UHGV virus genome: UHGV-0106067
DNA: 62,562 nt
Source of the DNA: a virus
Strand: one strand, 5' to 3'
In this document: piece by piece, positions 1 through 62,562 of the stretch
Position numbering within the stretch: position 1 is the stretch's first letter
Layout: every line of letters starts with the position of its first letter
Notes under the pieces: model-generated
The model's input: the letters and a program-made list of their open reading frames with translations, nothing else
The model's database searches: none
What the model was told of the DNA's origin: nothing
Translations under genes and position numbers: made by a program

Positions 1-266
1 TGTGTGTCTGTCATATCCGTCACCGGTGACTCCGGCTGAATATCACCATTTTCCGTGGTGACATCTTCCGCCTGTGGTTCCGGAAGCAGTTCCGGGGATG
101 GTTCCGGCTGTGCACCAAGCAATTCATCCAGAATTGAATCCACTTCTGCATCAAGACGCTCTTCCAGATTCTGGCGGAGTTTTTGTTTCAGGACGCTTCT
201 GACTTCTTCAGAGCGAATGACTTCCTTCACTGCCTCAGCAGTGACCAGTTGTTTTATATCTGTCAT
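1..266 (-). CDS. hypothetical protein, N-terminal part only (ORF runs off the window start)
   Basis: ATG at 266 on minus strand, open through position 1 (MTDIKQLVTAEAVKEVIRSEEV...); no family recognised. Confidence 0.3.
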   Translation of the reverse strand, partial: MTDIKQLVTAEAVKEVIRSEEVRSVLKQKLRQNLEERLDAEVDSILDELLGAQPEPSPELLPEPQAEDVTTENGDIQPESPVTDMTDT

Positions 267-291
267 GAGATTTTCTCGTTGAAAGGGGTTA

Positions 292-486
292 TTAAGAAGG
301 TTGTTCCGGAATGAGTGGGGCTTCTGTTTTTGCTCCGGCTGACTGAGTGGCGCTGATTTTCTCAGCGGCCCTTTTGTCAATCTGTCTGCGCCAGAAGTCG
401 CGTACTGCCCTGTATCCACCTGAAAGAAGATACAACACACAGACCACCGTACAGAAGTACAGCATTAACTGGTTGATGAATGTCAT
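292..486 (-). CDS. small hypothetical protein with N-terminal hydrophobic segment
   Basis: 64-aa ORF directly downstream of esterase gene; hydrophobic stretch LMLYFCTVVCVLYLL. Confidence 0.3.
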   Translation of the reverse strand: MTFINQLMLYFCTVVCVLYLLSGGYRAVRDFWRRQIDKRAAEKISATQSAGAKTEAPLIPEQPS

Positions 487-627
487 GGTTTATTACCGTT
501 ACTGTTGACAATGAGAACTGTTTTCATTTAGAAATGATTGATGTCGAAAGCATCCTTTCGTTAGATTCTCCATTGGGATTACCTCCGCCAGTCTCCATTC
601 CTGTTGCTGGCGGTTTTTTTTCGTCTG

Positions 628-2601
628 TTATGCTGCTACGGCATTCACACCAACAGTAAGACTTTCAATCAGCACAGGGTAAGTTGCCGCATTTCCGGTA
701 ATATCCGTAATTGCCAGCGCGTTGGCCTCAAAGGCTGCATTCGTCCATCTGGTCAGCGTAAACGGTTTTCCTGCTGCATTATCAAGCACCGGCGTGACGT
801 TCAGCGAGCCACCACCCGGGAAGCGGAAAGTCAGCGTGTGCCAGTCGTGATCGAACGGACCATAACTACCAAGCCGCTGTGATGTGGTGTTTGCATGATA
901 CATCACATTGATGTTTGTTTTATCAGTCTGCAGATAGAAGGCCGCAATATAACCCTCCTCTGATTCCGCTCCCGGCCATCCACTACCGCGCCAGTAAATA
1001 CCCGCAGAATATTGATTTGCAGAAGCATTGAGAGATACATCATCGGGGATTTTAAAGCGCAGCGTGATTTCACCGCCGTTATCGAACAGCTCCTTCCCCT
1101 TACCGGCATCAATTGCGTGCGATACTTTCCAGGTCTTTTTCTGTGCAAGACCATTTTCTGGTTTTTCAAGACGAAGGGCTTTTTTACCTGAACCACTGTC
1201 ACTGACCAGCGTGTTTTTGACATCTGTCAGCGTCCAGCCCTGCGAAGCCAGAGCGGCATTTTCCGCATTCACATCATAAGCCAGCACTGACTGTATCTTT
1301 GTCGGGACAACGGCTTCAGGCTGAGTATCGCCACTCTCCTGTGCTGGTTGCGATACGCCTCCGCCTGAAGAAACCGCGGCTTTTGTCACTTTCCCGGAAA
1401 CAAAATCTGCCACTCTGCCCACATGCAGAAGAATGGCTGTTGCCAGACGGTCGGAAATAATTCCGCGACGCGCCCATGAACCAAAGTGGGTTTTACGATC
1501 GGATGTTGTCCAGCTCTTCGCATCCGTTCGTCCACCGGAACCATAATACCCGATAGCCGGAATATCCGGGTCTTCTGACGGTTCATTGGTCCCGACTTTC
1601 TGACCATTGTCATCCATCATAAACGGCACAAAGAAGATATTTTTACCGGCTTTGGTTTTGTATGCGCCATAGACGGCATCGTATTGCGCTGAATACGTCT
1701 CCTTCCAGTAGTACGTCGTGTCACCACAAATCCAGGGCACCAGAGAAGGAGAAGCACCAGCGCACTGACCGGATACTCCCGCCAGGTCAGAACGGTATTT
1801 TTCCACCATGGCATCAAACATGGCGGGCTGACTGGCGTACGCTCCCTGTTTTAAATCAAACTCGCCCTGCATCCAGACAACACAAAGCAGTATGTTTTTG
1901 GGGTTTGCCTTCAGCGCGACCTGAGTGCGTGTCAGCAGGTCTTTATACAACGGCTTATCAACGCCCCATCGTTCAGATTTATCCGACGCTCCTGAACTTT
2001 CACTGAACGTTCCGTCAGCACCGGCTGTAAACGCAGAGCCACCACGACAGCACGGCACTAACAAAATACCCGCATTTTCCGGCATAAAGGGCAACAGCTT
2101 TTTGGCAATATGCAATCCCTGTCCGACACACCCATACTGCTCTGCGCTGGCTTTCGGATGAGAAAAACGGCTCAAATCCTGCACATCATGCAGGCAGTGG
2201 TCCGCCGGAATGATGTCGTTATATGCACAGGCCGCACCACCCGGTGTCACCGTACTGCGACGCGCCAGCTGTTTAATACGCGGGTCCGGACGGTCATATG
2301 TCTCCGGCAGCGGCAGGCCTTCACCATACGCCATGCCGTTTGACTGTCCGGCCAGCGCAATGACAAAGTAATATTCTGGTTCAACAACAACAGTCCGGGT
2401 ACCATCTCCCCCCGGTGAAACTACCGGAGAGGTCATATCCCCTTCAGCGACTATAGCCTGGATAAATTCAGCACCATAACCCGCGTTTGAGATAATCGGA
2501 CTACCATAGGGTTGCCAGCCTTCCTTCAGTTTTTGCGTCAGTTTTCCTGCGAGGTCTGACGGCGATGATGCCCTGACCACATCATAATGTTTAAATGCCA
2601 T
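628..2601 (-). CDS. nanS-p: NanS-p-like sialate O-acetylesterase (DUF1737 N-domain + SGNH-type esterase core)
   Basis: 657 aa; N-terminus MAFKHYDVVRASSPSDLAGKLTQKLKEGWQPYG typical of DUF1737; GQSNG esterase motif; location between Q-side cargo and lysis genes as in Stx phages. Confidence 0.7.
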   Translation of the reverse strand: MAFKHYDVVRASSPSDLAGKLTQKLKEGWQPYGSPIISNAGYGAEFIQAIVAEGDMTSPVVSPGGDGTRTVVVEPEYYFVIALAGQSNGMAYGEGLPLPETYDRPDPRIKQLARRSTVTPGGAACAYNDIIPADHCLHDVQDLSRFSHPKASAEQYGCVGQGLHIAKKLLPFMPENAGILLVPCCRGGSAFTAGADGTFSESSGASDKSERWGVDKPLYKDLLTRTQVALKANPKNILLCVVWMQGEFDLKQGAYASQPAMFDAMVEKYRSDLAGVSGQCAGASPSLVPWICGDTTYYWKETYSAQYDAVYGAYKTKAGKNIFFVPFMMDDNGQKVGTNEPSEDPDIPAIGYYGSGGRTDAKSWTTSDRKTHFGSWARRGIISDRLATAILLHVGRVADFVSGKVTKAAVSSGGGVSQPAQESGDTQPEAVVPTKIQSVLAYDVNAENAALASQGWTLTDVKNTLVSDSGSGKKALRLEKPENGLAQKKTWKVSHAIDAGKGKELFDNGGEITLRFKIPDDVSLNASANQYSAGIYWRGSGWPGAESEEGYIAAFYLQTDKTNINVMYHANTTSQRLGSYGPFDHDWHTLTFRFPGGGSLNVTPVLDNAAGKPFTLTRWTNAAFEANALAITDITGNAATYPVLIESLTVGVNAVAA

Positions 2602-2779
2602 GAATCCTCCCGGCCGGGATAGTGGGTTGAATCAGATAAGGACTGACTGAAGTCTGAAAATACAAAAGACAACTGCCAGTAAAAACGAAAAGGCCGCGCA
2701 GTTGCGCAGTCTCATCACCATCGGGTATTATTCACACGGTGAATAATCGAAACTCACTTTCTTTGTTTTATTCCTTGCC

Positions 2780-2809
2780 GCTCGCGCCTCCCGGCGCGGG
2801 CTTTTTTTG
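2780..2809 (+). terminator. intrinsic terminator (plus-strand orientation)
   Basis: hairpin cgcgcc-tccc-ggcgcg followed by gggcttttttt. Confidence 0.45.
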
Positions 2810-2812
2810 CAT

Positions 2813-2839
2813 GTAAAAAGGCCCCTGCGATGAGGGGCC
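2813..2839 (-). terminator. intrinsic terminator downstream of R-M operon
   Basis: hairpin ggcccct-gcgatg-aggggcc; on minus strand followed by ttttta. Confidence 0.5.
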
Positions 2840-3211
2840 TGAGAGTATTACCTGGTTTCAGTTAACTGCATAGTGCCGGGTGCCTCCCGGTGAGTTCAGC
2901 CCGGTGCCACCGAACCCGCGTCTTTCACATTGCCTGTGACATTAAAAATGCCAGCCCGCACCAGCCGCCCCGCCGCTGAGGGGGATTCACCATGCGTTGC
3001 GATTTTTAACAAATTCACCGCCAGCCAGACAATCATCAACTTGCTGAATTGTGAGGTATTTAAAAATTTCCCCGATTAACTGATACCCTGCTAACCACCT
3101 GTTGTTTTCTTTTTCAGCAACAAAAAAGCCCGCTCATCGGCGGATTCGGCTGCGTGGCAATGTAACCATTCTTATCATGATATGAGGATTTTTACGATTG
3201 TAAAATGTTTT

Positions 3212-4306
3212 TTAACTGACACCAGAATCATCATAACCGCGACTTGTTATAGCTTGCCTGTATGCGTTCATTTTGCGTTCTGCGTACTGGACAACATCTT
3301 TAATGACAAGCTTATGAACAACTGAAATAAGGTCATTTATATAACAAAAGTCAGGTGACTTATTTTTCACTGGCAACCAAATAACATCGTTCTTAATTTT
3401 TCTATTACTAACACTATCCCCCCATGAATATTTATGTGAAATAGACCTATAAATACATGAAATAATGCCCAAATAAGCAAACTTTGTCCTTCCATCCTCA
3501 TTGTTAACATAGAGTCGCAAATTATGACTGTCGTTTGAAAAAAAGTCTCGCTCCTGATAAGTTACAACGAATGTCTTACCACCAATAAAAATACAGTTCC
3601 CTTTTTCCAAGAGTGAGTCATCATAGGCGATATAAGAACTAACAGAGTTATTATCACGGCTAGCACAAAGATAAGGAACATCCCCACTATTTTCTATGAT
3701 GTCTCTAGACAATATGTTTCCTGTATTGCACACTGAGAATAACTCAGTAACAGGAAAGCCTGAAAATTCAATATTTTTAAAATGTTCCAGGATAAGATAA
3801 TCTTTTTCCGTTAGTTGGTAATCACTCAGCCCAGCAGCTATCAGGTATGCTTCCAGCTCTTCTATATGGGCCGCTTCCAGCTCTTCTATATAATTATCCA
3901 TAAAAAACCAGTCAATTTCATTATTTTTCACTGGTAATGAGATGAAATATTCTCCATCTCTGAGTTTGGAACTCGATAACTGTTGACCATAATTAAAACG
4001 CCCCTTTAAAGCTTTATTAATCATACTGGCAACATACAGTCCGCGCTTTGCATTAAAGTCGGACTTACTTGATTTTAATGTAAGAACATGCACCTTCATT
4101 TCTACGCTGGCACAATAAGGATGATAAAAAGCATCTCCAAAAAAATTAACGCTTATAAAATTTTCATAATGTCTTGCATCATCCATAAACTCGGTATCAA
4201 ACTCTCCGATGATACCGTTTTGATCGCTCTTTGCTGAAACACGTTTGATTTTGCCTGGTTTTAATCTTCCTGAGGAGATAAGCGAGCCTGTGCTCACATA
4301 GAACAA
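3212..4306 (-). CDS. restriction-modification specificity (S) subunit, two target-recognition domains
   Basis: 364 aa; two internal repeats each ending in an LPVKN...D-type segment (FISLPVKNNEIDWFF and VIWLPVKNKSPDFCYINDL) as in HsdS/BcgIB-type subunits; AT-rich; directly downstream of methyltransferase-nuclease gene. Confidence 0.5.
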   Translation of the reverse strand: MFYVSTGSLISSGRLKPGKIKRVSAKSDQNGIIGEFDTEFMDDARHYENFISVNFFGDAFYHPYCASVEMKVHVLTLKSSKSDFNAKRGLYVASMINKALKGRFNYGQQLSSSKLRDGEYFISLPVKNNEIDWFFMDNYIEELEAAHIEELEAYLIAAGLSDYQLTEKDYLILEHFKNIEFSGFPVTELFSVCNTGNILSRDIIENSGDVPYLCASRDNNSVSSYIAYDDSLLEKGNCIFIGGKTFVVTYQERDFFSNDSHNLRLYVNNEDGRTKFAYLGIISCIYRSISHKYSWGDSVSNRKIKNDVIWLPVKNKSPDFCYINDLISVVHKLVIKDVVQYAERKMNAYRQAITSRGYDDSGVS

Positions 4307-4365: not shown

Positions 4366-6327
4366 TTACTTTCCCGCAAAATTGTTTTCACCTTGTTTTT
4401 TCAGTAATTGCGAGACCTCCCATGCAAGGTAATCACCTACCGTCTTTTTGAAATCCTCCAGCGTTGGCCTAGCATCTACTGGCCTGGTCTGATTCCAGTC
4501 CTCACCACTATCAGGATCGATTGTTCCCTCAAAATATTCATCCTCCGTAAAGATATTAAGGCAACCTTTCCCGAAGTGAACCAGATCCACAACCTCCTGA
4601 TAACGCTCTTTTGCACGATCGGCATCAACAAGATTGTTTCTTGCCTTTTTGCGATTAGAGCGAGCGTAGCCGTCATTGGAAAAGTCGATAAACTTAACAG
4701 CCTGTTTCGCGTTATGCGGAATTTTTACCTGAAAAACGTAAATGTACGTCTGAACGCTTGATTTACCAATAAACAGATCCGCAGGCATTTTGATGCTTGC
4801 CAGCAAGGTATTTTCCTTGAGTATTTTTTTGTTGTACTCCGTAGCCTTTCCTGTGCCAGCTGAACTCTGGATAATCACTGCAGCATAGCCTTTATCCATC
4901 ATCGACAGCGCCTTCTGCACGAAAATCATGCCGTTACCTTTAGCTGAATACGGAGGATTGAGAATAAATGCGTCCGCAGGGAATTTTTCTCCTGTTTTCC
5001 CAAATCCATACTTGCCGTCAAAATCGGCCAGCGAGTCTTTATTGAGGATATTCGAGCTACCATCCCCCATCAAAATCATATTCAGGATGGCCAGCATATA
5101 AATACTGGATAACACCTCAAGGCCAAGAAGCTGTTCAGCCTTGATTTGCGCTTCCTTAAGTTGTAGTTCGTTCGGTGAGTGAATATTTTCTCTGGCGTCA
5201 ATGAGCATTTCATTCATTGCAGCCACAAGCAATCCCGCAGAACCTGTAGCAAAATCCCACACATAGGAATCTTTGTTTACTCTGGCGAGTCGTGCCAGCA
5301 ATGTGGCAACATAAGGTGGTGTCAGAACGACGTCATTGAGCTTGTCCTGCGTAAATCCAAGCCAGCGATACATCTCATTAAACAGTTTGCCCGTAAAATC
5401 GGTGGTCAGTCCAATTTTGTAATACTCCCCAAGATCATCAACAACTTTAACAAACACGCGCTTTAACTGGCTTTCACCGTTGACTGGTTTGTTAATGTTT
5501 TCAGTCCACAGCGTATTTTGCAACGAGCGCAAAATCATTTCTCTTTTTGTTTCAGGAACAGCTTTCAGCCTTAAAAAGTTCCTTATTTTCCTGAAAATAA
5601 TATCACCATCACGCAAGTCCTCCTCCGTTGAAGAGGTCAGTTCTTTTTTATCCAGCGGTGCTAACTTTCCCGGAATCCCCAACGTTGCAATAACGGTAGC
5701 CACAACAAGGTAAACACGATCGCTTTCACCAAGCCCCTTTTCATTCTGGTAAATATCGTTATTCAGACGGGAAAGTCGCGTGTCTATCTCTTCCTCTTTG
5801 CTGGCCTTGATTTTTTCCAGTTCTTCGGGAGGAAGATTAAGCAGCTTTATCTTGTTGAGAAATCCATCAACATTTTTGTCAGCAAGGAACGATAAGTCGG
5901 TGAATTCACCAACCTTCTGTCCGGCTCCTAAATTATTCTTTGATACGTACCACACGCCGATTTCATGATGCAGTTCGCCTGTACCATCATCGCGCCAGCC
6001 GGTCATACCAATAGCAATAATATCAGGGTAATTGGTGAACTGAAGAAGTGCGTTGGCATAATGGACTGCGCCATTCACCGCGTATCCATTAATATTTTTA
6101 AAATTCCATTCTTTTCTGGCATCTTTGTTCTCAATAATACCGTTGCTGCCAAGTCTGATAAGCCTGTCCTTGTAGCCTTTATACTCGATGAGAACGGGAT
6201 ACTGCTTGCCGTATTTGTCCTTAACAAGGAGTTTTACGTCGGGACGATTACCGCCTGCGCCGCCATTTTTCGAAAAATAAGCGTCCAGTGCGTTATCGAT
6301 CTCTCCGTTAAGTGATGCATTCTGCAA
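4366..6327 (-). CDS. fused PD-ExK endonuclease / gamma-class N6-adenine methyltransferase (Type IIB BcgI-A-like R-M subunit)
   Basis: 653 aa; N-terminal PD...(x17)...EYK motif (RPDVKLLVKDKYGKQYPVLIEYK); motif I VWDFATGSAGLL; motif IV FILNPPYSAKG; apparent TTG start. Confidence 0.6.
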   Translation of the reverse strand: MQNASLNGEIDNALDAYFSKNGGAGGNRPDVKLLVKDKYGKQYPVLIEYKGYKDRLIRLGSNGIIENKDARKEWNFKNINGYAVNGAVHYANALLQFTNYPDIIAIGMTGWRDDGTGELHHEIGVWYVSKNNLGAGQKVGEFTDLSFLADKNVDGFLNKIKLLNLPPEELEKIKASKEEEIDTRLSRLNNDIYQNEKGLGESDRVYLVVATVIATLGIPGKLAPLDKKELTSSTEEDLRDGDIIFRKIRNFLRLKAVPETKREMILRSLQNTLWTENINKPVNGESQLKRVFVKVVDDLGEYYKIGLTTDFTGKLFNEMYRWLGFTQDKLNDVVLTPPYVATLLARLARVNKDSYVWDFATGSAGLLVAAMNEMLIDARENIHSPNELQLKEAQIKAEQLLGLEVLSSIYMLAILNMILMGDGSSNILNKDSLADFDGKYGFGKTGEKFPADAFILNPPYSAKGNGMIFVQKALSMMDKGYAAVIIQSSAGTGKATEYNKKILKENTLLASIKMPADLFIGKSSVQTYIYVFQVKIPHNAKQAVKFIDFSNDGYARSNRKKARNNLVDADRAKERYQEVVDLVHFGKGCLNIFTEDEYFEGTIDPDSGEDWNQTRPVDARPTLEDFKKTVGDYLAWEVSQLLKKQGENNFAGK

Positions 6328-6416
6328 CTTGTAATCAAGCCTGTAAGATTTAAGCCATGAGTTCGCCAGTTCGGTAATTTCCGGCTCAACAGATTTTACA
6401 GACTTTCTTGATTTAC

Positions 6417-6451
6417 TGCTGGTCGCTGGTCGCTGGTCGCTGGTCGCTGGT
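6417..6451. repeat. heptanucleotide tandem repeat (YGCTGGT x5) upstream of R-M gene
   Basis: tgctggt cgctggt cgctggt cgctggt cgctggt, about 90 bp upstream of the R-M start. Confidence 0.9.
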
Positions 6452-6635
6452 CTGGCAGCATAAAATCATCCTTTTATGAAAATCAACGATTTTTGAGCAC
6501 TCGCACACAAAAAATTACCGCATTGGTTGCAACGACAACCTGCATTTTGCGGAGCATATGACAAATAAAGTACGGGTGCGTTGAGGATGCCAGACACATC
6601 AGAGGTGGCGGGAGATTACTCCCCTGCCTGGTCTC

Positions 6636-6791
6636 TTACTTCTCAGATTCGTAGTCTACGAAGACAGCGACCTCCGTCTGGCCGGTTCGGATTCGTACCT
6701 CGCAGAAGTCTTTCCTCGTTACCAGTGCTATCACTACGACGGTAATACAGATGACGATCAGGGCGATTAACATCGCCTTTTGCTGCTTCAT
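6636..6791 (-). CDS. hok: Hok/Gef-family type I toxin (HokC/HokD-like)
   Basis: 51-aa ORF MKQQKAMLIALIVICITVVVIALVTRKDLCEVRIRTGQTEVAVFVDYESEK; SD aaggaga upstream; absent from ORF track (<60 aa). Confidence 0.75.
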   Translation of the reverse strand: MKQQKAMLIALIVICITVVVIALVTRKDFCEVRIRTGQTEVAVFVDYESEK

Positions 6792-6966
6792 AGCCTACTT
6801 CTCCTTGCCTTTCGGCACGTAAGAGGCTAACCTAAGTTTGTAAGTCATAGATTTGGCCTCAGATTAATGTTAAGCGTCCTGCAAGACGCGTAATGTTAAC
6901 TGGGGCTTTTCTCTGTCTGCCTTACGGCTGCATGCCCGAGGCAGACAGCCTCAAGCACCCGCAGCT

Positions 6967-6994
6967 ATTCTACAGTAAAAACTCGCGCTTTCAA
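6967..6994 (-). promoter_or_regulatory. candidate late promoter (pR-prime-like) immediately downstream of Q
   Basis: minus-strand TTGAAA-16 nt-TAGAAT; -35 overlaps Q stop codon; inverted repeat ctgtctgcc/ggcagacag just downstream could be part of a qut-like element. Confidence 0.45.
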
Positions 6995-7416
6995 TTTCCC
7001 GCACGTCCGGCAAACTGACTGGCCTGTGATCCTGATGGTTCACGCTCAACGTACCTGTCCATTTCCAGCTTTACTCCCTGCATGATCAACATCCCCTCAA
7101 TAACACCTTCTGCTTTTTGCAGTACCCGCCCGGCCCAGCAATCAGAGCGCCCATGCTTACGGCCCAGTGACATAAGCGTCATCCCGAACACATAATAATC
7201 ATACAGAAAATCATGCAAATCGCTGTTGTTGACGTTCAGTTGCGCCATGCAATTGCTGATAATCAGCGCATCGTCATCGGTACACTGAGGCCGTGATTTA
7301 ACCTTTGACGGGATCAGCCCCTTAAATCCGGCGGCAATGGGCGACCAGCTCACATCCTCATGATTATTGGCCACCCATGCGCCCCAGCGTTCAAGCACCT
7401 GCTGAATATCACGCAT
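6991..7416 (-). CDS. Q: late antiterminator Q (933W/phage-21 type)
   Basis: [45 protein letters not shown] matches recalled Q of Stx phages; position after NinH; start placed at internal Met of 6991..7521 ORF. Confidence 0.65.
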
Positions 7417-7609
7417 CAGAGTCTTTACCCTTATCCCATCCACGATGGACCATAAGGACACCGTTGACGACGGCGTGCCGTTTGCCTTCTTTATCGCCAA
7501 TATATTTTCTGACCGTGGCACGATTACAGTTCAGTATTCGGGCCACCTCGGTCTGATTTCCATATGCCTCAACAAGCATGTCAGGAATGATTTTTACGGT
7601 GAACGTCAT
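7409..7609 (-). CDS. ninH: NinH
   Basis: [36 protein letters not shown] closely matches lambda NinH. Confidence 0.8.
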
Positions 7610-8175
7610 GCGGCCTCACTTCTGCTGTTTCGCAGGCCTTTAAATTTCTGTTGATACTCTGCCTTGATCGCCTTGCACTCTTCGACAGTCCAGCGGTGGC
7701 GACTATGGTTTGATTCGATTTCGTCTACTGCTTCCTGCCCGATGCGGTTAATCAGTTCGACGCGATACGGAACGAGATTTCCGCTTTTGTATTGGTTACA
7801 CACCACGCATTGCTTATGGATATTGCGTTCATCAAATCTGAGCTGAGGTGCCGCAGCTGTTGTACGGTAATGGCCAGCATCCCACTGGGCTGAATCTAAC
7901 GTCCCGCATGAAACACACGGCAAATGACGGTCCCGCTCCCTGATATAAGCATTCACAGCCTGTTGTGCCTGCTTAATCCAGTAACTGCGGGGCTGTAAGT
8001 CCCTCCTGCGCGCTTTCAGCTTGTCTGCCTGCTCTTTTGCTGAAGTTATCGCCTTTTCTTTTCTGACCAGTTCCAGTGCGCACTGACCACAGCAAACTTT
8101 CTGATATGAGCGGAACGGCACAAACGAGGAGCCGCACACTTTGCATTTTTTGGGTTTACGTTGCTTCATCATCAC
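7606..8175 (-). CDS. ninG: NinG/Rap recombination protein
   Basis: 189 aa, Cys-rich ([23 protein letters not shown]), position upstream of ninH. Confidence 0.75.
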
Positions 8176-8176
8176 C

Positions 8177-8626
8177 TCAGAAAAACGACAGCAGGCGGTT
8201 ATTCAGTTCAGGGCTGTTTGAGCGCCCAAACACATGCTTTAACGCGGCATTAATTATTGCGTTGTAGCAACGTTCAAACTCATCCTGATCCATATTCGCG
8301 TAACTCAGGCTTTTTGCCCGATATCTCACCTCGCCTCTTATGGTTGTGACCACATCATAGAACCCGGCAAGAATTGTCAGATTTTTACGAAACTCATCAA
8401 ACTGCGTCGCTTCATCAGAGAATTCGTATCCAGCATGTTCAGCGCACCAGTACTGAAAGCAGAAATTAAGAAAAGCGAACATCTTCCGGTGAAAAGATGG
8501 GTTACGGGTAAGTTTTGCTTCCAGTGTATACAGCTCACCGTTTTTAAATTTTGCCAGTCGGGGTAAATCGCGCTCATACGCCGGTACAAATACGCCATTA
8601 GCCGCCTTGATCATCTCTATTTCCAT
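8177..8626 (-). CDS. hypothetical phage protein (DUF1367-like)
   Basis: 149-aa ORF tightly packed between primase and ninG. Confidence 0.5.
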
Positions 8627-12219: not shown

Positions 12220-12320
12220 CGCCATAACTGACTCCTTCAAAATGCCCATATCATTACGCACAGTTATTAAAATGTCAACACCGCAGATATTTCATTACAT
12301 ATAACCAAAGGTGATATGGT

Positions 12321-14545: not shown

Positions 14546-14550
14546 CAAAA

Positions 14551-14577: not shown

Positions 14578-14661
14578 CCTCCTGCTCGCCCCACCATTTA
14601 CCAGTGCGCCGTAAATTCCCCATTCTTCGTGGCGGTGAGGATGTCAAAGACGAAGGGAACA

Positions 14662-52897: not shown

Positions 52898-52911
52898 ATA
52901 ATTCCCCGGAT

Positions 52912-52935
52912 AAAAAAGCCCGCATGACGCGGGCC
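52912..52935 (-). terminator. intrinsic terminator within late operon
   Basis: gcccgc-gtcat-gcgggc followed on minus strand by ttttttat. Confidence 0.5.
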
Positions 52936-52947
52936 GGAAGGTTTATA

Positions 52948-53340: not shown

Positions 53341-53354
53341 AATTAATGACTCCT

Positions 53355-53378
53355 GAAAAAGCCGGGCGATAACCCGGC
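53355..53378 (-). terminator. intrinsic terminator after major capsid gene
   Basis: gccggg-ttatc-gcccggc followed on minus strand by tttttcagg. Confidence 0.5.
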
Positions 53379-53394
53379 ATGGGGAAAGGAAAAA

Positions 53395-54609: not shown

Positions 54610-54631
54610 TACGTCAGTACTCCTTCAGTGG

Positions 54632-55639
54632 TTACCCGAGTTTTTCCAGAATCGCGTCAATTTCAGCGTCCGTCATGCCTCGCATGGCTGCTTCAATTTC
54701 GGTATGGGAAGCACCAAGTAACCGTTCAAAATTATCACCGGTTCCGACGGAAGCCGTGTTGCCAAGCTCTGACGGGGAAGCAGGCACTGCCATCTCCCGT
54801 TCAGCGGCTTTCACTTTTTCTTCCGCCGTTTTCCGGATATCCGTGTTGTCTGCCTTGTCATCAGAAGGCGGCTCACTGGCTTCACCAAAAGCGAGCTGCG
54901 TACGGCGGGCCACTTCGGCGAAACGTTCAGTGAGCGGTTTGTCTTTCCATGCGGGGTCATTCTGGAGCTTCCCGTCGATGGATACGGCAACCGAGAAGCG
55001 ATCCGGATCGGAGTTCTGCCACGTTTTCAGCACCGGCACGGCATTCATCGCATCAAGAACCGGTGATAAATCCTCACCACCATGACCTTCTGCCTGCTGT
55101 GCTGATTGCTGAACACGGGACTGGAGATAGTTATTTTTACGGATGAGCGAAGCCACCGCGTCACCAATTTCCGGATACATATCCCTGATACGGGCAATCT
55201 TCTCATCAGAGATTTTTTCGTTTTCCGGTAACGGTGCGGGTTTCATACCGGCCTGGTGGATCTGAGACGTCAGCAGTTCAACCAGGCGTTTTTCTTCGGC
55301 TATCTGTCCCCGAAGAAGTGCGGCTTCCTGTTCGGCCCGCTGCTTACCGGAACGTTCAGCCTCAAGGACTTCATAGGGAATGACGTGTTTACCATCGCGG
55401 GTGAGCACACCCTTCGCCTCCGGCTCCTTCACGTCCTGCGTCTGCTCAGCACTGGCATCCGGCGTCGGTGCCGCAGTGTTATCGCCCGTCTGTGTCTGTG
55501 CTGCCTCATCCGCATGATTTTCTGTGGCGGCCTCTGTCACGCCGTCCTGTTCGTGACCGTCAATATCCACATCCCCAAGTCCTTCCAGCATTTTTTCCAG
55601 TTGTTCCGGGGTTTCTTCACCCGTAAATTCAAAATCCAT
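54632..55639 (-). CDS. scaffolding-like protein
   Basis: 335-aa acidic, helix-rich ORF between portal and capsid genes. Confidence 0.5.
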   Translation of the reverse strand: MDFEFTGEETPEQLEKMLEGLGDVDIDGHEQDGVTEAATENHADEAAQTQTGDNTAAPTPDASAEQTQDVKEPEAKGVLTRDGKHVIPYEVLEAERSGKQRAEQEAALLRGQIAEEKRLVELLTSQIHQAGMKPAPLPENEKISDEKIARIRDMYPEIGDAVASLIRKNNYLQSRVQQSAQQAEGHGGEDLSPVLDAMNAVPVLKTWQNSDPDRFSVAVSIDGKLQNDPAWKDKPLTERFAEVARRTQLAFGEASEPPSDDKADNTDIRKTAEEKVKAAEREMAVPASPSELGNTASVGTGDNFERLLGASHTEIEAAMRGMTDAEIDAILEKLG

Positions 55640-55751
55640 AAATAACTCCGCATGGTCTGTTTATCGGACAGATCCGAATGGTTGAGTAAATAAGGCTTAT
55701 CGCTGCCCCCGCGAATAAGCGCACCGCTCCCGGAACGCTTATCTCCGGAAA

Positions 55752-55776
55752 CAAAAAACCCCGTACGATGACGGGG
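55752..55776 (-). terminator. intrinsic terminator after portal gene
   Basis: ccccgt-catcg-tacgggg followed on minus strand by tttttttg. Confidence 0.5.
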
Positions 55777-55796
55777 TTCCGTTAAGTTCAGGATTT

Positions 55797-57941
55797 TCAG
55801 AGCGGCATTTCATGCATCCGCTGTTGTAGTGTATGCAGCATCTGTTGCTGAAGAACTTCCTGCTCCTGTTCCATATTCTGTATGCCGGTAATGATTTCTG
55901 CCGTATGTGCCTGGTTAAGCGCATCCACATAACGCTGTCCCTGTGCCGCGGCGACATCCCGTTGTGCGCCAGCATTATCCCGTTGCGCAGCCGCGCGTGC
56001 CCTGGCAGCTTCTGCTTCCAGTTTAGCCACCCGGCCTGTCATTTCGCGCATCTGAAGTTCTGCCTGCTGTTGCTCCAGCGCTTGCTGTTGTGCTGCCGCT
56101 TCCTGCTCTTCCGGAGTCATCTCATCCGGTGATTTTGGCGTCCCCAGCGCCGCACGAATACGTTCGACAAATTCCTGTTTCTGCGGCACATCCAGAAGAT
56201 TAACCCACAGATCGAGCACAACAGCCTGCACCTGAGGCGGCAGCCCCTGAATAACCTCTGACATTCTCTGTGCAAGCTGTGCCTTAAACGCCGGTGTCTG
56301 CTGAACAGGAGCCAGCGCAATATGTGTATTTAACCTTGAAATATCATTGGTCAGTTCACCATTATCACCTTCAGCATTGAGGACAATGGTCTGGCGACGC
56401 TGACGATCATCGCGATTAATCACCACCGCATGATTGCGCCGCTTTTTCAGGTCATCAAGAAGATAAGCGAGCAACAGCCTTCCCACCTGCTGGCAGGCAA
56501 ACTGGTAGTTATCGTTGATTTCGGCAAGGGTTGTGGCTCCCTGCTCCACCAGGTTGCTGATCGCCACACCGGACGATGCATTTGAATCCTGCCCGAGAAA
56601 TGCGGAATAAACCCCCATCGTGTCCTGGATAAGTTTTTCCGACTCCTGCATGACCTGAAACTGCTGGCTGGCAACCTGAAAATCCTGTTCAACCCGGAAA
56701 ACATCAGCAACGCTTTTCTGATTTTTTCGGGCCGGATTCAGTTTAATAATGCCATCCGGACGCTCGATCTGCTCCATCAGCTCGTTGTCTGACAACTGGG
56801 TGGCATCCTCGTCCATAATCACGCGTTTGGCCTGAAGCAACCACGTCAGTTTTATACGACGAAAATTCACCTCATCCTGTGCCGGAATGGCCCGGGAAAT
56901 CAGCCCGTAAGGCTCCCCGGTTTTATCCTTCCGGTATCCCCAGAAGGGAACCAGCGGGAACATCCCCTGCGGCGCACTGCAGGGGCGATCCACAATAAAG
57001 TGCGGTCCCACAAACCAGGCTTCACGAATACGACTTACCCGCCCGACTCTCACCTGCACCCGCCCGGATGCCACAGCCACCGCATGCATCAGATTATTTT
57101 TATCAAAGGCCACCACCCGTCCATTACTGAGTTCAATCACCGGAAGACGCTCGAATGTACGGTAATAAACCACCTGAAGCAGCACACGACGGCGTTCACG
57201 CTGAAGCCATTCGTTCTGCTGTCGATCCCATGACTGATACTCTTCCCATGCACTCATCAACGGACTGGGCTGGCCTTCAGTAACCGTGGTATCGACAAAA
57301 CCACGCCAGTCATCAATGGCATAATCGATAACCTGAGCCATTCCCGGAAATGTGGCTTTTGCCTCATCGGTATCCATCCAGCGGCGGCGCATCAGCCAGC
57401 GGCAGTCACTTAAATCAGCCTCCCGGCTGAGCCAGTCCCAGAACACTTCATTCCGGCTGACAGTAGACACCTTAAACTCAGGCCCGAACGGATCGCTGTT
57501 CCGTCTGACCTCCACCCAGCTGAGCCCCGCTTTGATTTGTTCCGCATAGGCATCAGAACGGGCTTTATTCATATTTCCAAGGCGGCAAGCATCGGCAAAT
57601 TCAGCATTAATAGCTTCAGCCAGTTTTTCTGTTTCATCATCAGGATCATCTGATATCACCAACAGATCAGTCCGCGTTTTGGCCTCCATACCCAGAACAC
57701 CATCAACGGTAGGCGCGATGAGGTTATGGATGGTCATCGGCTGACCGCGATCTTTCAACACCTGGAGAACTTCCAGTGGCAACTGGTCACCATCGTAATA
57801 CGCACAGGCCTTGTTTGCGGCATCGCGCCATTTAGGCTGACTGTCAATATCAGAACAAAGCGCCTGTAACTGGCGCTGAGAAAAACGCGGCGTGGCTCCG
57901 TTGTCGTTTTTCGTCGCCATGGTATTAGTTTCATTTTTCAT
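55797..57941 (-). CDS. portal protein
   Basis: 714-aa ORF immediately downstream of terminase large subunit, start overlapping its stop. Confidence 0.65.
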   Translation of the reverse strand: MKNETNTMATKNDNGATPRFSQRQLQALCSDIDSQPKWRDAANKACAYYDGDQLPLEVLQVLKDRGQPMTIHNLIAPTVDGVLGMEAKTRTDLLVISDDPDDETEKLAEAINAEFADACRLGNMNKARSDAYAEQIKAGLSWVEVRRNSDPFGPEFKVSTVSRNEVFWDWLSREADLSDCRWLMRRRWMDTDEAKATFPGMAQVIDYAIDDWRGFVDTTVTEGQPSPLMSAWEEYQSWDRQQNEWLQRERRRVLLQVVYYRTFERLPVIELSNGRVVAFDKNNLMHAVAVASGRVQVRVGRVSRIREAWFVGPHFIVDRPCSAPQGMFPLVPFWGYRKDKTGEPYGLISRAIPAQDEVNFRRIKLTWLLQAKRVIMDEDATQLSDNELMEQIERPDGIIKLNPARKNQKSVADVFRVEQDFQVASQQFQVMQESEKLIQDTMGVYSAFLGQDSNASSGVAISNLVEQGATTLAEINDNYQFACQQVGRLLLAYLLDDLKKRRNHAVVINRDDRQRRQTIVLNAEGDNGELTNDISRLNTHIALAPVQQTPAFKAQLAQRMSEVIQGLPPQVQAVVLDLWVNLLDVPQKQEFVERIRAALGTPKSPDEMTPEEQEAAAQQQALEQQQAELQMREMTGRVAKLEAEAARARAAAQRDNAGAQRDVAAAQGQRYVDALNQAHTAEIITGIQNMEQEQEVLQQQMLHTLQQRMHEMPL

Positions 57942-59647
57942 CAGTGAGCCATCCAGTGTGTGGTTCTGCGTTTATCCGTTTTCTGTTTTACCCTCACCGG
58001 CATTCTGGCGCGCATCTCCTGGGCAATCATGTAGCTCATAAGCTGATCATCAAAACAGCCTTCCTGTGCATTCATGGAGCCTTTCGCGTCATAAACGTAG
58101 GTGTTCATTTCTGATAATGTGCCCGACCAGCGGATCCCCGACAGGCCGTTATTCAGCAGCGTTTTCATTCCCTCTGTCAGGACCGGTTTACTCTGGCGGG
58201 TTGTCAGCCAGCCAAGACGGGGCGTATCGTCGTCATATGCCTGGTCAAGGTGCTGTTCGTTGTAGATATAACGCGTCGGATAGAGTTCCCTGAGTTTCAG
58301 GATAACGGCATGTCCGTGATTGTTACGCTCCGGCCCCACAAACGCATTGTTGTACATACGGCAGACCTGCGCAATGAGATGAGCGAAAAGCTCCGCATCG
58401 AGATGACCAAACCAGTGAGCCACCTGCTCACCATTACTGCATCTGATGATATCCAGCGATGAGCGGTCTCCGTGCTCCAGCCCCTCAGCGGTATCCGCTC
58501 CGCATACATACTCTTCATCCGGATCCGGCAGCTCCCAGACCAGCAGATAATTCATCAGCGTCCGGTGCTGTTCGGCTTTATTCCCGTCACGCAGAGACTG
58601 CGCCTTGGTCTTCGTTCCTGTAACCGGTTCAATGTCATAAACAATCAGCGGTGGCGAACAGAATGACTCTGCCTGCAGCGTGCTTTCCGCACTGAACACC
58701 CGTCGTCCTGACGTCAGAAACGCCTCCTGTGGCGTTGAGGGAAATTCCTGCTTCATTTCCTCACGCTGTTCAGTTTCCTTGCAGATGTACCAGTGTTTCT
58801 GCTCATCGGTAAGCGTGATGTTCATTGCTTTTTCAACCGCAGAAAAATACGCTGTTTTTTCCCGTGACAGCTTAAGTCCGCTTTCCGGCACTCTGGCGCT
58901 GTATTTGAGATCCTGCCACCAGGCGTAAAAATGGAATTTATAATCCTGTGGCGTCAGCGCCAGCCCTGATGCAGTGATTTCCTGTGCCCGGTTACTCATC
59001 TCGTAAAAATCGCCACCCACACCTTCAGCAGTGGATTCATCAAAAATAATGCACTCATCAGAGACGGCATTAAGTGTACCGGTTCGCAGTTCTTTCGCCT
59101 TAGCCGGATATTTTGCGCAAATTTTGCCGTGCTCTGAGATATGCAGGCGCTGCACCGTACCTGAACGGAATGAGGTTGCCACCTGGATACTCGAGCCGTG
59201 ACCAAACAGGATATAGCCACCGCTGGCTCCGCTACGACGTTCAACGATGGTGAATGAGGCTCTCAGCCAGTCAGGAAGATGATCAAACGGTACAGCAATT
59301 TTGGTGCGGAAAATTTCACTGGCAGCCTGTTTATCCTGAGCGACAATCCCGCATTTGAGATGCGGTATGAATAATGCCTGGTCGAGAAGATAAATATCAA
59401 TGGCTGTGGAAAATCCCAGCTGGCGCGCTTTCAGGATAATGTTTTTATTATGCATGTTACGAAACAACTGACGTTGCGCCGGTCGCATTCTGAAGGTGAC
59501 CAGTTCACCTTTTTCGTTCTGTATTTTGTAGAGATGATTGAGGCGCCACCAGGGATTGCTCAGTTTTGTCATAATGAACAGACGTTGTTCGGTCTCAGTC
59601 ATTTCTGCAGATTCATCACATCGCGGTTTATTCTTCCGGAATGTCAT
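57941..59647 (-). CDS. terL: terminase large subunit
   Basis: 568 aa; ATPase then nuclease segments; position after small subunit. Confidence 0.75.
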   Translation of the reverse strand: MTFRKNKPRCDESAEMTETEQRLFIMTKLSNPWWRLNHLYKIQNEKGELVTFRMRPAQRQLFRNMHNKNIILKARQLGFSTAIDIYLLDQALFIPHLKCGIVAQDKQAASEIFRTKIAVPFDHLPDWLRASFTIVERRSGASGGYILFGHGSSIQVATSFRSGTVQRLHISEHGKICAKYPAKAKELRTGTLNAVSDECIIFDESTAEGVGGDFYEMSNRAQEITASGLALTPQDYKFHFYAWWQDLKYSARVPESGLKLSREKTAYFSAVEKAMNITLTDEQKHWYICKETEQREEMKQEFPSTPQEAFLTSGRRVFSAESTLQAESFCSPPLIVYDIEPVTGTKTKAQSLRDGNKAEQHRTLMNYLLVWELPDPDEEYVCGADTAEGLEHGDRSSLDIIRCSNGEQVAHWFGHLDAELFAHLIAQVCRMYNNAFVGPERNNHGHAVILKLRELYPTRYIYNEQHLDQAYDDDTPRLGWLTTRQSKPVLTEGMKTLLNNGLSGIRWSGTLSEMNTYVYDAKGSMNAQEGCFDDQLMSYMIAQEMRARMPVRVKQKTDKRRTTHWMAH

Positions 59648-60446
59648 CCAGTCTCCCCGAATTACTCATTTCATGCAGCGATGACACGATGTCACTGACA
59701 GGCGTAACAACGCCCCGACGCTGGCTGGTCAGAATATCGGTTTCCGCTCTGAGTTTATCTCTGGCGGCGTTGATTCTTTCCCGGTCAGCACGAAGTTTTG
59801 GTGCTGTTTCCGCCAGAACGTCCAGCGTCAGCAATGAGCGTTCAATTGACTCGATACGGGCAATATTCCGGTCAAGAGCCTGTTCGGCTTTAAGTATTTT
59901 GTCGTACAGGGCAACACGGGTTTCCACGTCAGCCGCCTCTTTCAGGTCGGCGAACATTTTTTTCAGTGTTCCTGTTACTGAAAGTGCGCGGGCACGGGTG
60001 AACACCAGTTCATCGAACAGCACCATATCGGACGCATCATCCATGAGGTTATCTGCCTCAAGATACTTCGCATATCCACGGTGTCTCACGGCGTGGGTGT
60101 TACGGTCGCTAAACCGGGCAACGGGGTGAGGATTGCCCGATCTGCTGTTGCGTTTCGTTTCTGCCGAATTTGCGCAGTTTTTTTCAGAATTTTTTGCGCA
60201 TTTTTCATCGTCGGAACCCGCGTCATTGCTGGGTTCTTCATCTGAGATGTCATGATCGATTTCATGATCGATTTCATGATCGGTTTTATGATCGATTTCA
60301 TGATCGATTTTGCCCATTTTTATACGGGTTCTGGCGGTGTTGTAATTAATCTTTTTCTTACGGCACCACTCCAGTAATGTTATTCCCGTTTCGGCATGTT
60401 CGCGTCGGAATGCCTGCTCCAGTTTTTTCCAGTCCAGCTTTGCCAT
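59628..60446 (-). CDS. terminase small subunit-like protein containing (IDHE)n repeat
   Basis: 272-aa ORF upstream of and overlapping terL. Confidence 0.5.
   Translation of the reverse strand: MAKLDWKKLEQAFRREHAETGITLLEWCRKKKINYNTARTRIKMGKIDHEIDHKTDHEIDHEIDHDISDEEPSNDAGSDDEKCAKNSEKNCANSAETKRNSRSGNPHPVARFSDRNTHAVRHRGYAKYLEADNLMDDASDMVLFDELVFTRARALSVTGTLKKMFADLKEAADVETRVALYDKILKAEQALDRNIARIESIERSLLTLDVLAETAPKLRADRERINAARDKLRAETDILTSQRRGVVTPVSDIVSSLHEMSNSGRLDDIPEE
60251..60310. repeat. 12-bp tandem repeat x5 (atgatcgatttc) inside terS coding region
   Basis: read directly; encodes IDHEIDHKTDHEIDHEIDHD. Confidence 0.9.
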
Positions 60447-60747: not shown

Positions 60748-61215
60748 TTATTTCAGGCACTGAGTGCGGATATATTCCTGTGCCCCTTCCAGCTGCTTCT
60801 GCATCATCATCAACCGCTCTCTGAGGGTGAAATAATCCCGTTCAGCGGTGTCTGCCAGTCGGGGGCCGGTTGCATTATCCATGCCGGAGGTGCCGGTGGC
60901 TTCACGCACGGTACCGGAGCAGGTGGCGTTGATCCGCAGGCGCTTACGACCAGCAGCAACATCAGCACGCAGAGTTTCATTTTCAGCTCTCGCATCGGCT
61001 AATTCCCTCGAGTATTTTGCATCGAGCGCAGCAACATCGCGCTGGCGCACCTGCATATCAGTAATGGTGGCGTTTGCCAGCTCCAGCTCTCTGGCTTTTT
61101 TATCGCGCTGCGCTTTGTAGGTGATGGCGTTATCGCGGTAATGGTCTGTTGCCAGCCACAGCGCACCACAGCCACCCGCCAGGACAATAATCACCACACA
61201 CAGAACACGGCTCAT
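60748..61215 (-). CDS. Rz: Rz i-spanin
   Basis: N-terminal TM, coiled-coil periplasmic domain; contains embedded Rz1 frame. Confidence 0.75.
60810..60995 (-). CDS. Rz1: Rz1 o-spanin lipoprotein, embedded in Rz in +1 frame
   Basis: lipobox LLLVVSAC then Pro-rich [17 protein letters not shown]; likely start at internal Met (60980). Confidence 0.65.
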
Positions 61216-61222
61216 CTCTCTT

Positions 61223-61354
61223 TCACCCCACCAGTCCCGATAACGTCAGGACTCGCCAGGCGGTGGAAAAGAAAATGGCAACCAGCATTAGTGAAAATGA
61301 AATGCCGACAATTACACAGAGGATCTTCGCCAGCGTTATGAGTTTGTCTGACAT
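61223..61354 (-). CDS. small single-TM membrane protein between endolysin and Rz
   Basis: 43-aa [46 protein letters not shown] with SD agggagga. Confidence 0.4.
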
Positions 61355-61368
61355 GCTTAATCCTCCCT

Positions 61369-61551
61369 TCACGATTTCAACGCAATGACCAGTTTTGCCA
61401 GCCCATACAGCATCGGGGACACAGCAACACCGACCGCCACCCACTTAATGGCAAAAGCCAGTGCTCTGCTGATGTCATCAGTTACAGGCGCTTTCAGTTC
61501 AAGGCCGTTTTTCATAGTCAACCTCAACAGAATTCGTTTATACTTTTCCAT
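61369..61551 (-). CDS. small hypothetical protein with C-terminal hydrophobic segment
   Basis: 60-aa ORF MEKYKRILLRL... with SD aagggag. Confidence 0.35.
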   Translation of the reverse strand: MEKYKRILLRLTMKNGLELKAPVTDDISRALAFAIKWVAVGVAVSPMLYGLAKLVIALKS

Positions 61552-61707
61552 GTTCTCCCTTGCCTTATCCAAGGTCAGAAACACAAAACCCCGCTTGCAG
61601 CCAACAAACGGGGTTTTTACTTTTATTCACTTAGTTTTTGTCAGTTCGCAGGATTTCGTGTTATCCGTCCGTGTGAGCAAACCGCATTTTTCAGCAAAAT
61701 ATTCTGC

Positions 61708-62241
61708 TTATCTGTCAATTCCCCAGCACGCCAGCGCGCTCTCCTGGTCACGCCGCGATACCTGCCCGTAACAGTTATTTGAGCGATTCCGACAGTCCCT
61801 GCCGCCGTCATATATCCATCGGCGGATTTCAGCACATGCACCTTTCCGGTCTCCGGCGTTCAGTTTCCGGTAAAACGTTGAGGTGAAGCATTTCGAAGGC
61901 CCGATGTTGTACGGACAGAATGACGCGATGCCCGCTTTCTGCGGTTCAGTCAGTGGCACTCTGATGTTTTTCTCCACCCATGCCAGCGCCTTATCACGTT
62001 CAATGGCATTAACCTGAGCGCATTTTTCCTTCGACAACTTCATGCCCGGGACGACAGGTTTGCCATCCACCATGATGGCACCACGGCAGATGGTCCAGAT
62101 CCCCGCACCATCACGGTATGCCGTGGTGTGGTTACCTTCTTTTTCGTCAAGAAACTGGTCGAGGATTTCAGGCGCAGAAGCACCTGTGGCAATCAGCGCC
62201 AGAACGGCTACCGATAAACCATAGTGGAGTTTCCTGCTCAT
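61708..62241 (-). CDS. R: SAR endolysin (lysozyme R, phage-21 type)
   Basis: N-terminal signal-anchor-release segment then E-x8-D-x5-T (EGNHTTAYRDGAGIWT); matches recalled Stx-phage R. Confidence 0.85.
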   Translation of the reverse strand: MSRKLHYGLSVAVLALIATGASAPEILDQFLDEKEGNHTTAYRDGAGIWTICRGAIMVDGKPVVPGMKLSKEKCAQVNAIERDKALAWVEKNIRVPLTEPQKAGIASFCPYNIGPSKCFTSTFYRKLNAGDRKGACAEIRRWIYDGGRDCRNRSNNCYGQVSRRDQESALACWGIDR

Positions 62242-62245
62242 CAGC

Positions 62246-62461
62246 TTACTCTCCCCGCGCAGCTTTGCGCCGGTCTTCTTTAATCTTGAAATACAGATTC
62301 GTCAGGTATGTCAGGAACCCCAGACACAGGCTCCCCAAAACCCCGATAGCAGCCCACTGTGACGGAGTAACCTGATCCAACCACTGTAGAAACCAGTAAC
62401 CCGCACTGCCCGCAGAAGTACCATAGGCTATGCCCGTTGATATTTTTTCCATCTGATACAT
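62246..62461 (-). CDS. S: class II pinholin (S21-like) with dual-start motif
   Basis: [31 protein letters not shown]... matches recalled S21; Met1 and Met4 starts. Confidence 0.8.
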
Positions 62462-62492
62462 ATCCCCGCCCCGACAGACCTGTGCTACCGGA

Positions 62493-62526
62493 AATAAAAA
62501 AGGCCATCAGTGTTTTACTGATGGCC
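62493..62526 (-). terminator. intrinsic terminator 32 bp upstream of S
   Basis: ggccatcag-taaaaca-ctgatggcc followed on minus strand by tttttt. Confidence 0.55.
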
Positions 62527-62562
62527 CTGCCCCGCCGTTACAGCATTGTGCCCGGTTCGGGT

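Follow-up and report, generated by a model that had tools for sequence, protein, structure and literature searches.

Permuted map of UHGV-0106067, a stx-negative 933W-like phage genome in attP form, and a heptanucleotide array in its restriction–modification gene

What form of a phage is represented by a sequence in which the integrase gene lies mid-map and the late operon is divided between the two ends? The question is raised by UHGV virus genome UHGV-0106067, analysed here as one stretch of 62,562 bases (the window), which has 49.5% G+C and is nearly all coding. A preliminary description, made from the letters of the sequence, considered it to be the vegetative or episomal permutation of a Shiga toxin (Stx) phage-like genome, rather than a prophage with attL and attR as its borders. 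The window is, very probably, one complete genome of a temperate, short-tailed, stx-negative 933W-like (Sepvirinae) phage of the Eru1 type, unintegrated, closed at attP and arbitrarily linearised. Most genes are carried by the minus strand; a plus-strand block at about 12.3–26 kb comprises the repressor, accessory genes and the early-left operon. A second question is posed by a restriction–modification (R-M) gene of the late region, which contains a heptanucleotide array.

A minus-strand open reading frame (ORF) that leaves the window at position 1 had been predicted to stop 25 nt into the other end if the molecule were circular, and the stop was found exactly there. The 5′ part of this ORF occupies 1..266, with an ATG at 266, and its last 25 nt, including the TAA stop codon, lie at 62538..62562, as given by translation of the joined ends. 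The joined ORF encodes 96 aa and is identical to the coding sequence (CDS) 28232..28522 of Escherichia phage PhiR12_3; the Prokaryotic Genome Annotation Pipeline (PGAP) assigns it to DUF826 in related genomes. The ends also proved to be seamless in the three relatives inspected: the positions corresponding to 62562 and 1 are contiguous, with no gap or overlap, in PhiR12_3 (28498/28497) and in the G6/7 (30891/30890) and UCPROB-001 (31674/31673) prophages, and the 100-mer spanning the join has an exact match in PhiR12_3. The expectation that Q with its cargo and the lysis genes are adjacent only on a circle is thus borne out by the join in relatives. No direct repeats of at least 40 nt were found in the window except for the collagen-like repeats of a tail-fibre gene; the record is therefore without terminal redundancy.

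The integrase and candidate attP reported from the middle of the window were both confirmed. The tyrosine integrase (27429..28598, minus strand; Pfam Arm-DNA-bind_3 and Phage_integrase) is of the argW-specific type and is accompanied by an excisionase-like helix–turn–helix (HTH) protein (27278..27445, plus strand; HTH_17). The segment 27084..28820, which holds int, shows 98.9% DNA identity to prophages integrated at argW. The attP core, GTCCTCTTAGTTAAATGGATATAA (24 bp; 28794..28817, plus strand), is identical to the 5′-terminal 24 nt of argW, a tRNA-Arg gene; it is present in a single copy, with 0 expected by chance even when three mismatches are allowed, and is the reverse complement of the 24-bp ‘duplication due to insertion’ annotated in Japanese records of Stx2a argW prophages. 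Alignments of the window to E. coli chromosomes end at 28820 on one side and begin at 28793 on the other, overlapping at 28793..28820. The G6/7 prophage is located between dsdC-argW and yfdC and the UCPROB-001 prophage between argW and yfdC. In the window, both flanks of the core are phage DNA, one bearing the integrase gene and the other the stop codon of a 2783-aa ORF; this makes the site attP rather than attL or attR. The window thus has one core with phage arms on both sides, no host genes and ends that join.

The point at which the record is cut lies inside the conserved small DUF826 gene, about 2.1 kb upstream of terS, and is not a pac or cos site. A cut within a conserved gene is an arbitrary break and not a packaging end, so that the permutation reflects assembly or linearisation and not which molecule (virion DNA, an excised circle or a rotated record) was sequenced. 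The part of the preliminary description that concerned the unintegrated attP form, as opposed to an attL/attR prophage, therefore stands, but the break point does not specify a vegetative or episomal source molecule. Presumably, this molecule was a circle or had circularly permuted ends, as would be the case if DNA of virions or of an induced culture had been assembled into a circular contig. Records of Stx phages derived from particles often have the integrase mid-record, including Stx2 phage 86 and the vB_EcoP_phi29x-34x phages (e.g., vB_EcoP_phi346), and the maps of induced Stx phages compared with those of their prophages have been described as ‘rearranged in two parts’ (PMC7946995). The permuted map is real, yet ordinary, and marks the record as a whole phage genome in the attP form. 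The mid-map position of the integrase is expected, yet useful for annotation, since it indicates a whole unintegrated phage genome with argW as the attachment site.

According to this interpretation, the phage would integrate into the 5′ end of argW, and the linearisation point would fall in the late operon, where the small DUF826 gene separates nanS-p from the holin gene. Late transcription would proceed along the minus strand through Q, the promoter, hok/sok, the R-M genes, a small RNA (sRNA) and nanS-p, pass the join to the S-R-Rz/Rz1 genes and continue through the packaging and virion genes to the gene of the polyvalent protein (2783 aa), whose end is close to attP on its near side.

The relatives of the window were sought with megablast against 50,697 phage records, and hundreds of Stx-converting and related E. 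coli phages were matched. The top match was PhiR12_3 (PV340552.1; 61,979 bp), with about 98% identity over 77–90% of the query; records of Stx2a-converting prophages classified as Sepvirinae/Oslovirus showed 89–94% identity over 60–80% of the query. The chromosomal prophages of human commensal or probiotic E. coli UCPROB-001/-002, G6/7, G8 and G1/2 are 99.8–99.9% identical over the first 15.8 kb of the window. The genomes of PhiR12_3 and the argW prophages (UCPROB-001/-002, Symbioflor G6/7, G8 and G1/2) are collinear with the window throughout, with 98–99.9% identity over most shared segments and about 92–97% in the polyvalent-protein and tail regions. They share with it Q, hok, the repeat array, the R-M genes, nanS-p and the order of the lysis genes, as well as the integrase, the att core and the structural block, but their records are in the prophage order (int first) or integrated, and their arrays comprise 76–99 repeat copies versus five in the window. 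The window differs from its relatives by several mosaic module replacements: segment 13048..15412 is replaced with respect to PhiR12_3 and G6/7 only, being common to the window and UCPROB-001, and further replacements occupy 21851..24656, 26008..27083 and about 46774..47657.

The Stx-converting Sepvirinae (Oslovirus Lyz12581Vzw, Stx2a argW prophages and podophages of the 933W type) have in common with the window the podovirus structural module, the class II holin, R, Rz/Rz1 cassette, nanS-p, the argW type of integrase, the Eru1 replication region and a huge polyvalent protein adjoining attP. Unlike them, the window contains neither stxAB nor tRNA genes. Genome-wide similarity and synteny with classified members, together with the podovirus virion module, place the window among the Sepvirinae (933W-like) phages. 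It is a previously unrecorded mosaic of the stx-negative phages of this well-known group, with Eru1-type replication.

The structural and packaging block (37377..60446, minus strand) is of podovirus type, as judged from a PHROGs scan and a portal match. It comprises terS, terL, a P22-like portal, an adaptor, tail fibres, an internal virion protein, Lom and several conserved unknowns; the capsid protein is of the Phage_capsid_3/N4-gp56 type. No tape measure, tail tube or sheath protein was found among the 20 structural-block proteins compared with PHROGs, and this result, along with the P22-like portal, supports the short-tailed virion proposed from the lack of such genes. The large polyvalent protein (2783 aa; 28940..37291, minus strand) is encoded by the last gene before attP and is 92–96% identical to its counterparts in relatives, being more diverged than the remaining late region. 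A role as a tape measure was considered for it and rejected in view of its Pfam domains, which are of polyvalent-protein type only (LPD38, LPD5, LPD1 and MuF_C). As regards headful packaging, the portal is P22-like, and the only matches of terL are to generic terminase families of PHROGs, with none in Pfam. A 12-nt tandem repeat, GATTTCATGATC, is present in 5.4 copies (plus strand; 60169..60310) within the 5′ part of terS and was considered as a possible pac site; the peptide repeats that it encodes are of the IDHE type, and the sequence here is not the same as in PhiR12_3. The sole long internal repeat family of the window is found at 49479..50501, where the gene of a 687-aa tail fibre encodes collagen-like (Gly-X-Y) repeats.

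The late region has the gene order of a lambdoid late operon, with Q, a promoter site, accessory genes and S-R-Rz/Rz1 on one strand. The lysis genes do lie at the right edge, on the minus strand, where Pfam matches in the cassette (60748..62461) identify class II holin S (62246..62461; P21 holin S, E 5e-35), lysozyme R (61708..62241; E 5e-25) and Rz (60748..61215; E 7e-50). Rz1, which has a lipobox, is embedded in Rz (60810..60995). Late antiterminator Q (6991..7416, minus strand; Phage_antitermQ, E 1e-47) is distantly related to Q21 proteins of determined structure (PDB 6P18/6JNX). The preliminary description had also placed a late promoter and cargo at the left edge. Q, hok/sok, the R-M pair and nanS-p are all found there, but the promoter only as a sigma-70-like candidate, TTGAAA-16-TAGAAT (6967..6994, minus strand), which matches ten of the 12 consensus positions and overlaps the stop codon of Q. 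This candidate may represent pR′, possibly a Q-dependent late promoter, and/or the promoter of hok. The hok/sok module (6636..6960, minus strand; hok CDS 6636..6791; Rfam RF01794, 118 bits) lies directly downstream of Q, and its protein is named Hok/Gef in the PGAP annotation of relatives. The transcription start predicted for the sigma-70-like site is position 1 of the hok RNA model, and the Q-dependent late transcript may begin as the hok mRNA.

Further along the same strand are the R-M genes, an sRNA, the nanS-p-type SASA carbohydrate esterase gene (628..2601; DUF1737, SASA and DUF6645 domains), which Stx phages conserve at the position downstream of stx, and the gene of a small membrane protein (292..486), named DUF1378 after the PGAP annotation of relatives. 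The gap between this accessory block and the holin gene holds a terminator-like hairpin (62500..62528, minus strand) with a 12-bp stem and a run of T, recognised as a consensus match only.

The usual stx/tRNA slot had been thought to carry other cargo. Neither a match to stx nor room for it was found in the window, the ORFs between Q and the holin gene being otherwise all assigned, and ARAGORN detected no tRNA genes; the window is accordingly not that of a Stx-converting phage. The R-M cargo, however, is outside the slot proper. The Stx1c prophage of strain 2013C-3033 has the order Q, hok, repeat array, R-M alpha, S subunit, stxA1c, stxB1c, nanS-p, DUF1378, DUF826 and holin, and its stx insertion aligns between window positions 3063 and 3120, so that the corresponding slot (about 3063..3120) is empty in the window. 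The presence of the R-M genes upstream of stx1c indicates that hok and the R-M genes are independent accessory genes able to coexist with stx. An STnc100-like sRNA (2809..3025, minus strand; Rfam RF02076, 149 bits) adjoins the empty slot; in the Stx1c relative, extra partial STnc100-like copies flank stx1c (L052, 3979..4221).

The R-M system consists of two genes on the minus strand. The first to be transcribed (4366..6461, including the array) encodes a BcgI-alpha-like Type IIG/IIB endonuclease–methyltransferase with the PD..ExK and NPPY motifs (PADLOC REase_MTase_IIG, E 6e-228). The second (3212..4297) encodes a specificity (S, BcgI-beta-like) subunit with two target-recognition domains, corresponding to two Methylase_S stretches, and is recognised by PADLOC as a Type II specificity subunit (E 9e-21). 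A fused nuclease–methyltransferase subunit and a separate specificity subunit with two target-recognition domains are the features of a Type IIB/IIG system. BcgI itself (Type IIB) is likewise encoded by two genes. In its alpha subunit, as in that of the window, a PD..ExK nuclease at the N-terminus is combined with a gamma-class adenine methyltransferase bearing NPPY, and its beta subunit, like the S subunit of the window, is similar to the S subunit of Type I systems and carries two target-recognition domains. The sequence similarity to BcgI is distant (PADLOC profile PDLC03602, E 1e-44), cleavage on both sides of a bipartite site and methylation of that site would be predicted for the window system, and BcgI lacks the 5′ heptanucleotide array of the window alpha gene. 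The homologue in PhiR12_3 was named ‘BcgI alpha chain-like’ by its depositors.

The array is a tandem repeat of variable number (VNTR) with the unit GACCAGC on the coding strand, present in five copies at 6418..6452 (minus strand); in relatives, it is situated between hok and the R-M alpha gene. The annotated start of R-M alpha is a TTG at 6327, with no Met among the first 80 residues, and the frame remains open for 46 more codons upstream. When the codons between the array and this TTG are included (4366..6420), the match to the PADLOC Type IIG profile extends from 36–717 to 15–717 and gains 14 bits. A Neisseria flavescens homologue (686 aa, 72% identical) starts with MTQASKKSNKSIEPNIADLANGWLKSYKLDYRLEQ, which aligns to SKSRKSVKSVEPEITELANSWLKSYRLDYKLQN in the upstream frame of the window, and the region is also homologous to the N-termini of Providencia homologues and to the family profile. 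An allele free of repeats (P0015) starts with MLPNQRPTNKSRK (MLPNQRPT), and full-length database alleles of 705, 751 and 766 aa start with MLP or MIL followed by (DQRPATS)n. The open frame, the extended profile match and the N-termini of homologues and alleles together locate the array inside the R-M alpha coding region, with the start at ATG 6461. This real start (ATG, 6461..6459) is preceded by AAGGA and is separated from the array by six further bases.

With perfect arrays, only copy numbers divisible by three keep R-M alpha in frame, and the two other frames stop within seven codons after the array. The five-copy allele of the window is out of frame and is predicted to yield a 21-aa peptide, unless the TTG is used. 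Copy numbers were compared in 16 complete sequences, 15 of them complete chromosomes, and in the window. Perfect arrays in the complete genomes comprise 31–99 copies, whereas in four arrays variant units break the tract and the first perfect run is of 8–65; with the window included, frames 0, 1 and 2 were seen four, five and eight times, respectively. Sister strains differ (76 copies in UCPROB-001 versus 83 in UCPROB-002; 83 in G6/7 versus 99 in G8), and draft viral contigs contain 3–34 copies. The same number, exactly 83, was seen in four different sources (PhiR12_3, G6/7, UCPROB-002 and O111:H8 7-32 9A), which is unexpected for a freely slipping tract and indicates that the tract does not change at every transfer. 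The array is kept in alleles just 87% identical at the protein level, which argues for its maintenance and against a recent accident.

A perfect repeat whose unit is not a multiple of three nucleotides is thus present in the 5′ coding region, and both in-frame and out-of-frame alleles occur among relatives. The balance of these observations leans, with modest confidence, towards R-M alpha being a prophage-borne contingency locus, a BcgI-like Type IIB/IIG gene that would be switched ON and OFF through slipped-strand changes of (GACCAGC)n behind its real start. A precedent is known. Gene neuO of the E. coli K1 prophage CUS-3, called a ‘mobile contingency locus’, contains the heptanucleotide AAGACTC in 2–93 copies; its product is full length at multiples of three only, three units encoding one heptad (PMC3046976). 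Both are prophage-borne E. coli genes with a heptanucleotide VNTR a few bases past the start, the heptad here being DQRPATS, but the repeat units differ (AAGACTC versus GACCAGC), as do the products (a capsule O-acetyltransferase versus a restriction–modification enzyme), and switching is a prediction for R-M alpha. Apart from the neuO precedent, the literature on BcgI-like R-M systems in Stx phages, on the GACCAGC heptanucleotide, on PhiR12_3 or ECOR13 prophages or on the packaging of Stx phages yielded nothing directly relevant, and no paper on this repeat-carrying R-M gene was found in the literature searched.

The array has left traces in databases. In RefSeq/PGAP annotations, its opposite strand is called a ‘YXWGXW repeat-containing protein’ (L006, 23867..24484; L025, 24616..25266), and R-M alpha is started at the internal TTG, giving a truncated 653-aa ‘HsdM’ call (WP_001178557.1). 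Each of the two annotations seems to be an artefact that arises from alleles out of frame. The plus-strand repeat protein was rejected as the product of the array, being an artefact of a perfect 7-nt array, and homology supports coding on the other strand. Many IMG/VR draft contigs end within the array. The distance from the ATG to the TTG is 316–792 nt in all 16 complete sequences versus 134 nt in the window; the array of the window is thus far shorter than those of the complete genomes, and its five copies are probably the result of short-read assembly collapse, as might be expected if the record came from a circular contig assembled de novo.

The same details bear on other ways in which such a record could arise. 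Stx-like phages form multiple lysogens, and a unit-length slice over two tandem prophage copies at argW would have the same internal anatomy, the tandem junction restoring attP. The window, however, is exactly one genome long and its ends join without overlap or gap, which for an arbitrary slice would be a coincidence, and the complete genomes of G6/7, UCPROB-001 and O121 RM8352 hold single copies with host genes at the ends; a tandem dilysogen is very improbable. It is also improbable, if slightly less so, that a prophage was excised and its ends joined at the att core in silico, followed by rotation of the record, in which case the permutation would say nothing about the physical molecule. 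Near-identical integrated prophages do exist, and the product would have the same sequence as a true attP form, but rotation to an intragenic point would have no obvious reason, and the short array, unlike those in all 15 complete chromosomes, better fits a de novo short-read contig. The least probable source is a non-integrating, plasmid-like episome (phage-plasmid). An episome could be expected to carry modules of the addiction type, such as the hok/sok and HicAB of the window and the second hok seen in relatives; yet these modules are also carried by the fully inspected relatives, which are chromosomal at argW (hok/sok in all, HicAB only in UCPROB-001). The window retains an intact integrase, excisionase-like gene and attP, the ORFs examined included none for partition or for replication of the plasmid type, and the plasmid collection gave no close match, the best being distant Stx-phage matches with 35% coverage at 78% identity. 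None of the three readings has positive support.

Some points nevertheless weigh against a complete, unintegrated and arbitrarily linearised genome. No record identical to the window was found among the database records compared; a 40-nt pattern from the window start had 17 matches in IMG/VR, none of them the window itself, and the five-copy repeat junction specific to the window had none among metagenome contigs. If the array has collapsed, the genome itself exceeds the record by a few hundred bases. For a 933W-like phage, PhageTerm gave an ambiguous ‘Mu-like’ call of the packaging class (PMC7946995), and the whole interpretation is drawn from the nucleotide sequence. With these points taken into account, a single complete genome in the attP form is still regarded as the best explanation by far.

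The remaining genes are those of replication, immunity and the early-left operon. The early-right operon (7606..11487, minus strand), recognised by protein family matches, includes a small ORF, Eru1-type replication genes and NinG. Eru1 is a non-lambdoid replication region of Stx phages (PMC8044961). Family matches identify a superfamily 2 (SF2) helicase (506 aa; 9587..11107), a Toprim/zinc-ribbon primase (323 aa; 8626..9597) and a DUF1367 protein (149 aa; 8177..8626), all on the minus strand; the sizes of 323 and 149 aa are those of Eru1B and Eru1C, and the helicase fits Eru1A as described (PMC8044961). The immunity region contains cro (12022..12225, minus strand; family match and annotation of relatives) and a LexA-type cI repressor (12321..13034, plus strand) with HTH_3 and Peptidase_S24 domains. 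Accessory genes in a rex-like position (13463..15257), identified by family matches, encode an SDH-type ClpP-fold serine protease (plus strand) and divergent HicA/HicB (minus strand); PhiR12_3 and G6/7 have a BsuBI/PstI endonuclease remnant there instead. This site looks like a cargo hotspot, possibly for defence genes expressed in the lysogen.

Downstream of the repressor region, isrK-like and C4-like antisense RNAs (Rfam RF01394 and RF01695; 61 and 77 bits) are followed by a Rha-family antirepressor (Phage_pRha) at 16002..16891 (plus strand). This arrangement is that of an RNA-controlled antirepressor module resembling P1 immI and belongs to the early-left region. The stretch from cI to the module has no evident N-like ORF. 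The early-left operon (16962..26002, plus strand), as indicated by family matches, comprises kil, gam, RecT/bet, exo and genes of ssb-like, YfdQ, PAPS-reductase-like, Ea22, DpdA-like, DUF551 and antirepressor proteins. A window-specific segment of it (21946..24492, plus strand) encodes a PAPS-reductase-like PP-loop protein (phrog_424), with weak similarity to SspD/DndC, and a DpdA/queuine tRNA-ribosyltransferase-like protein (phrog_887); it is possibly a 7-deazaguanine-type DNA modification (anti-restriction) module. On the strand opposite to the operon, a DUF4145 protein (a PHROGs ‘DNA binding protein’; 26076..26822, minus strand) is encoded in a segment absent from the closest prophage relatives of PhiR12_3. 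PADLOC gave no match for the SDH-type protease, the DUF4145 protein or the DpdA-like protein.

The 933W-like chassis thus circulates without stx in commensal human E. coli, ready for stx acquisition, and one relative carries stx1c exactly at the position of the empty slot of the window. The array is a practical hazard, as short-read assemblies break or collapse at it and automatic annotation is misled. If R-M alpha is indeed a contingency locus, it would be the second heptanucleotide ‘mobile contingency locus’ after neuO, now masked by RefSeq annotation, and would constitute a phase-variable R-M system of E. coli (possibly a phasevarion or a variable defence), borne by Stx-type phages and sometimes located directly upstream of stx. 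Should such switching take place, DNA methylation, like the restriction of incoming phages and plasmids, would differ stochastically among E. coli lysogens of Stx-type phages.

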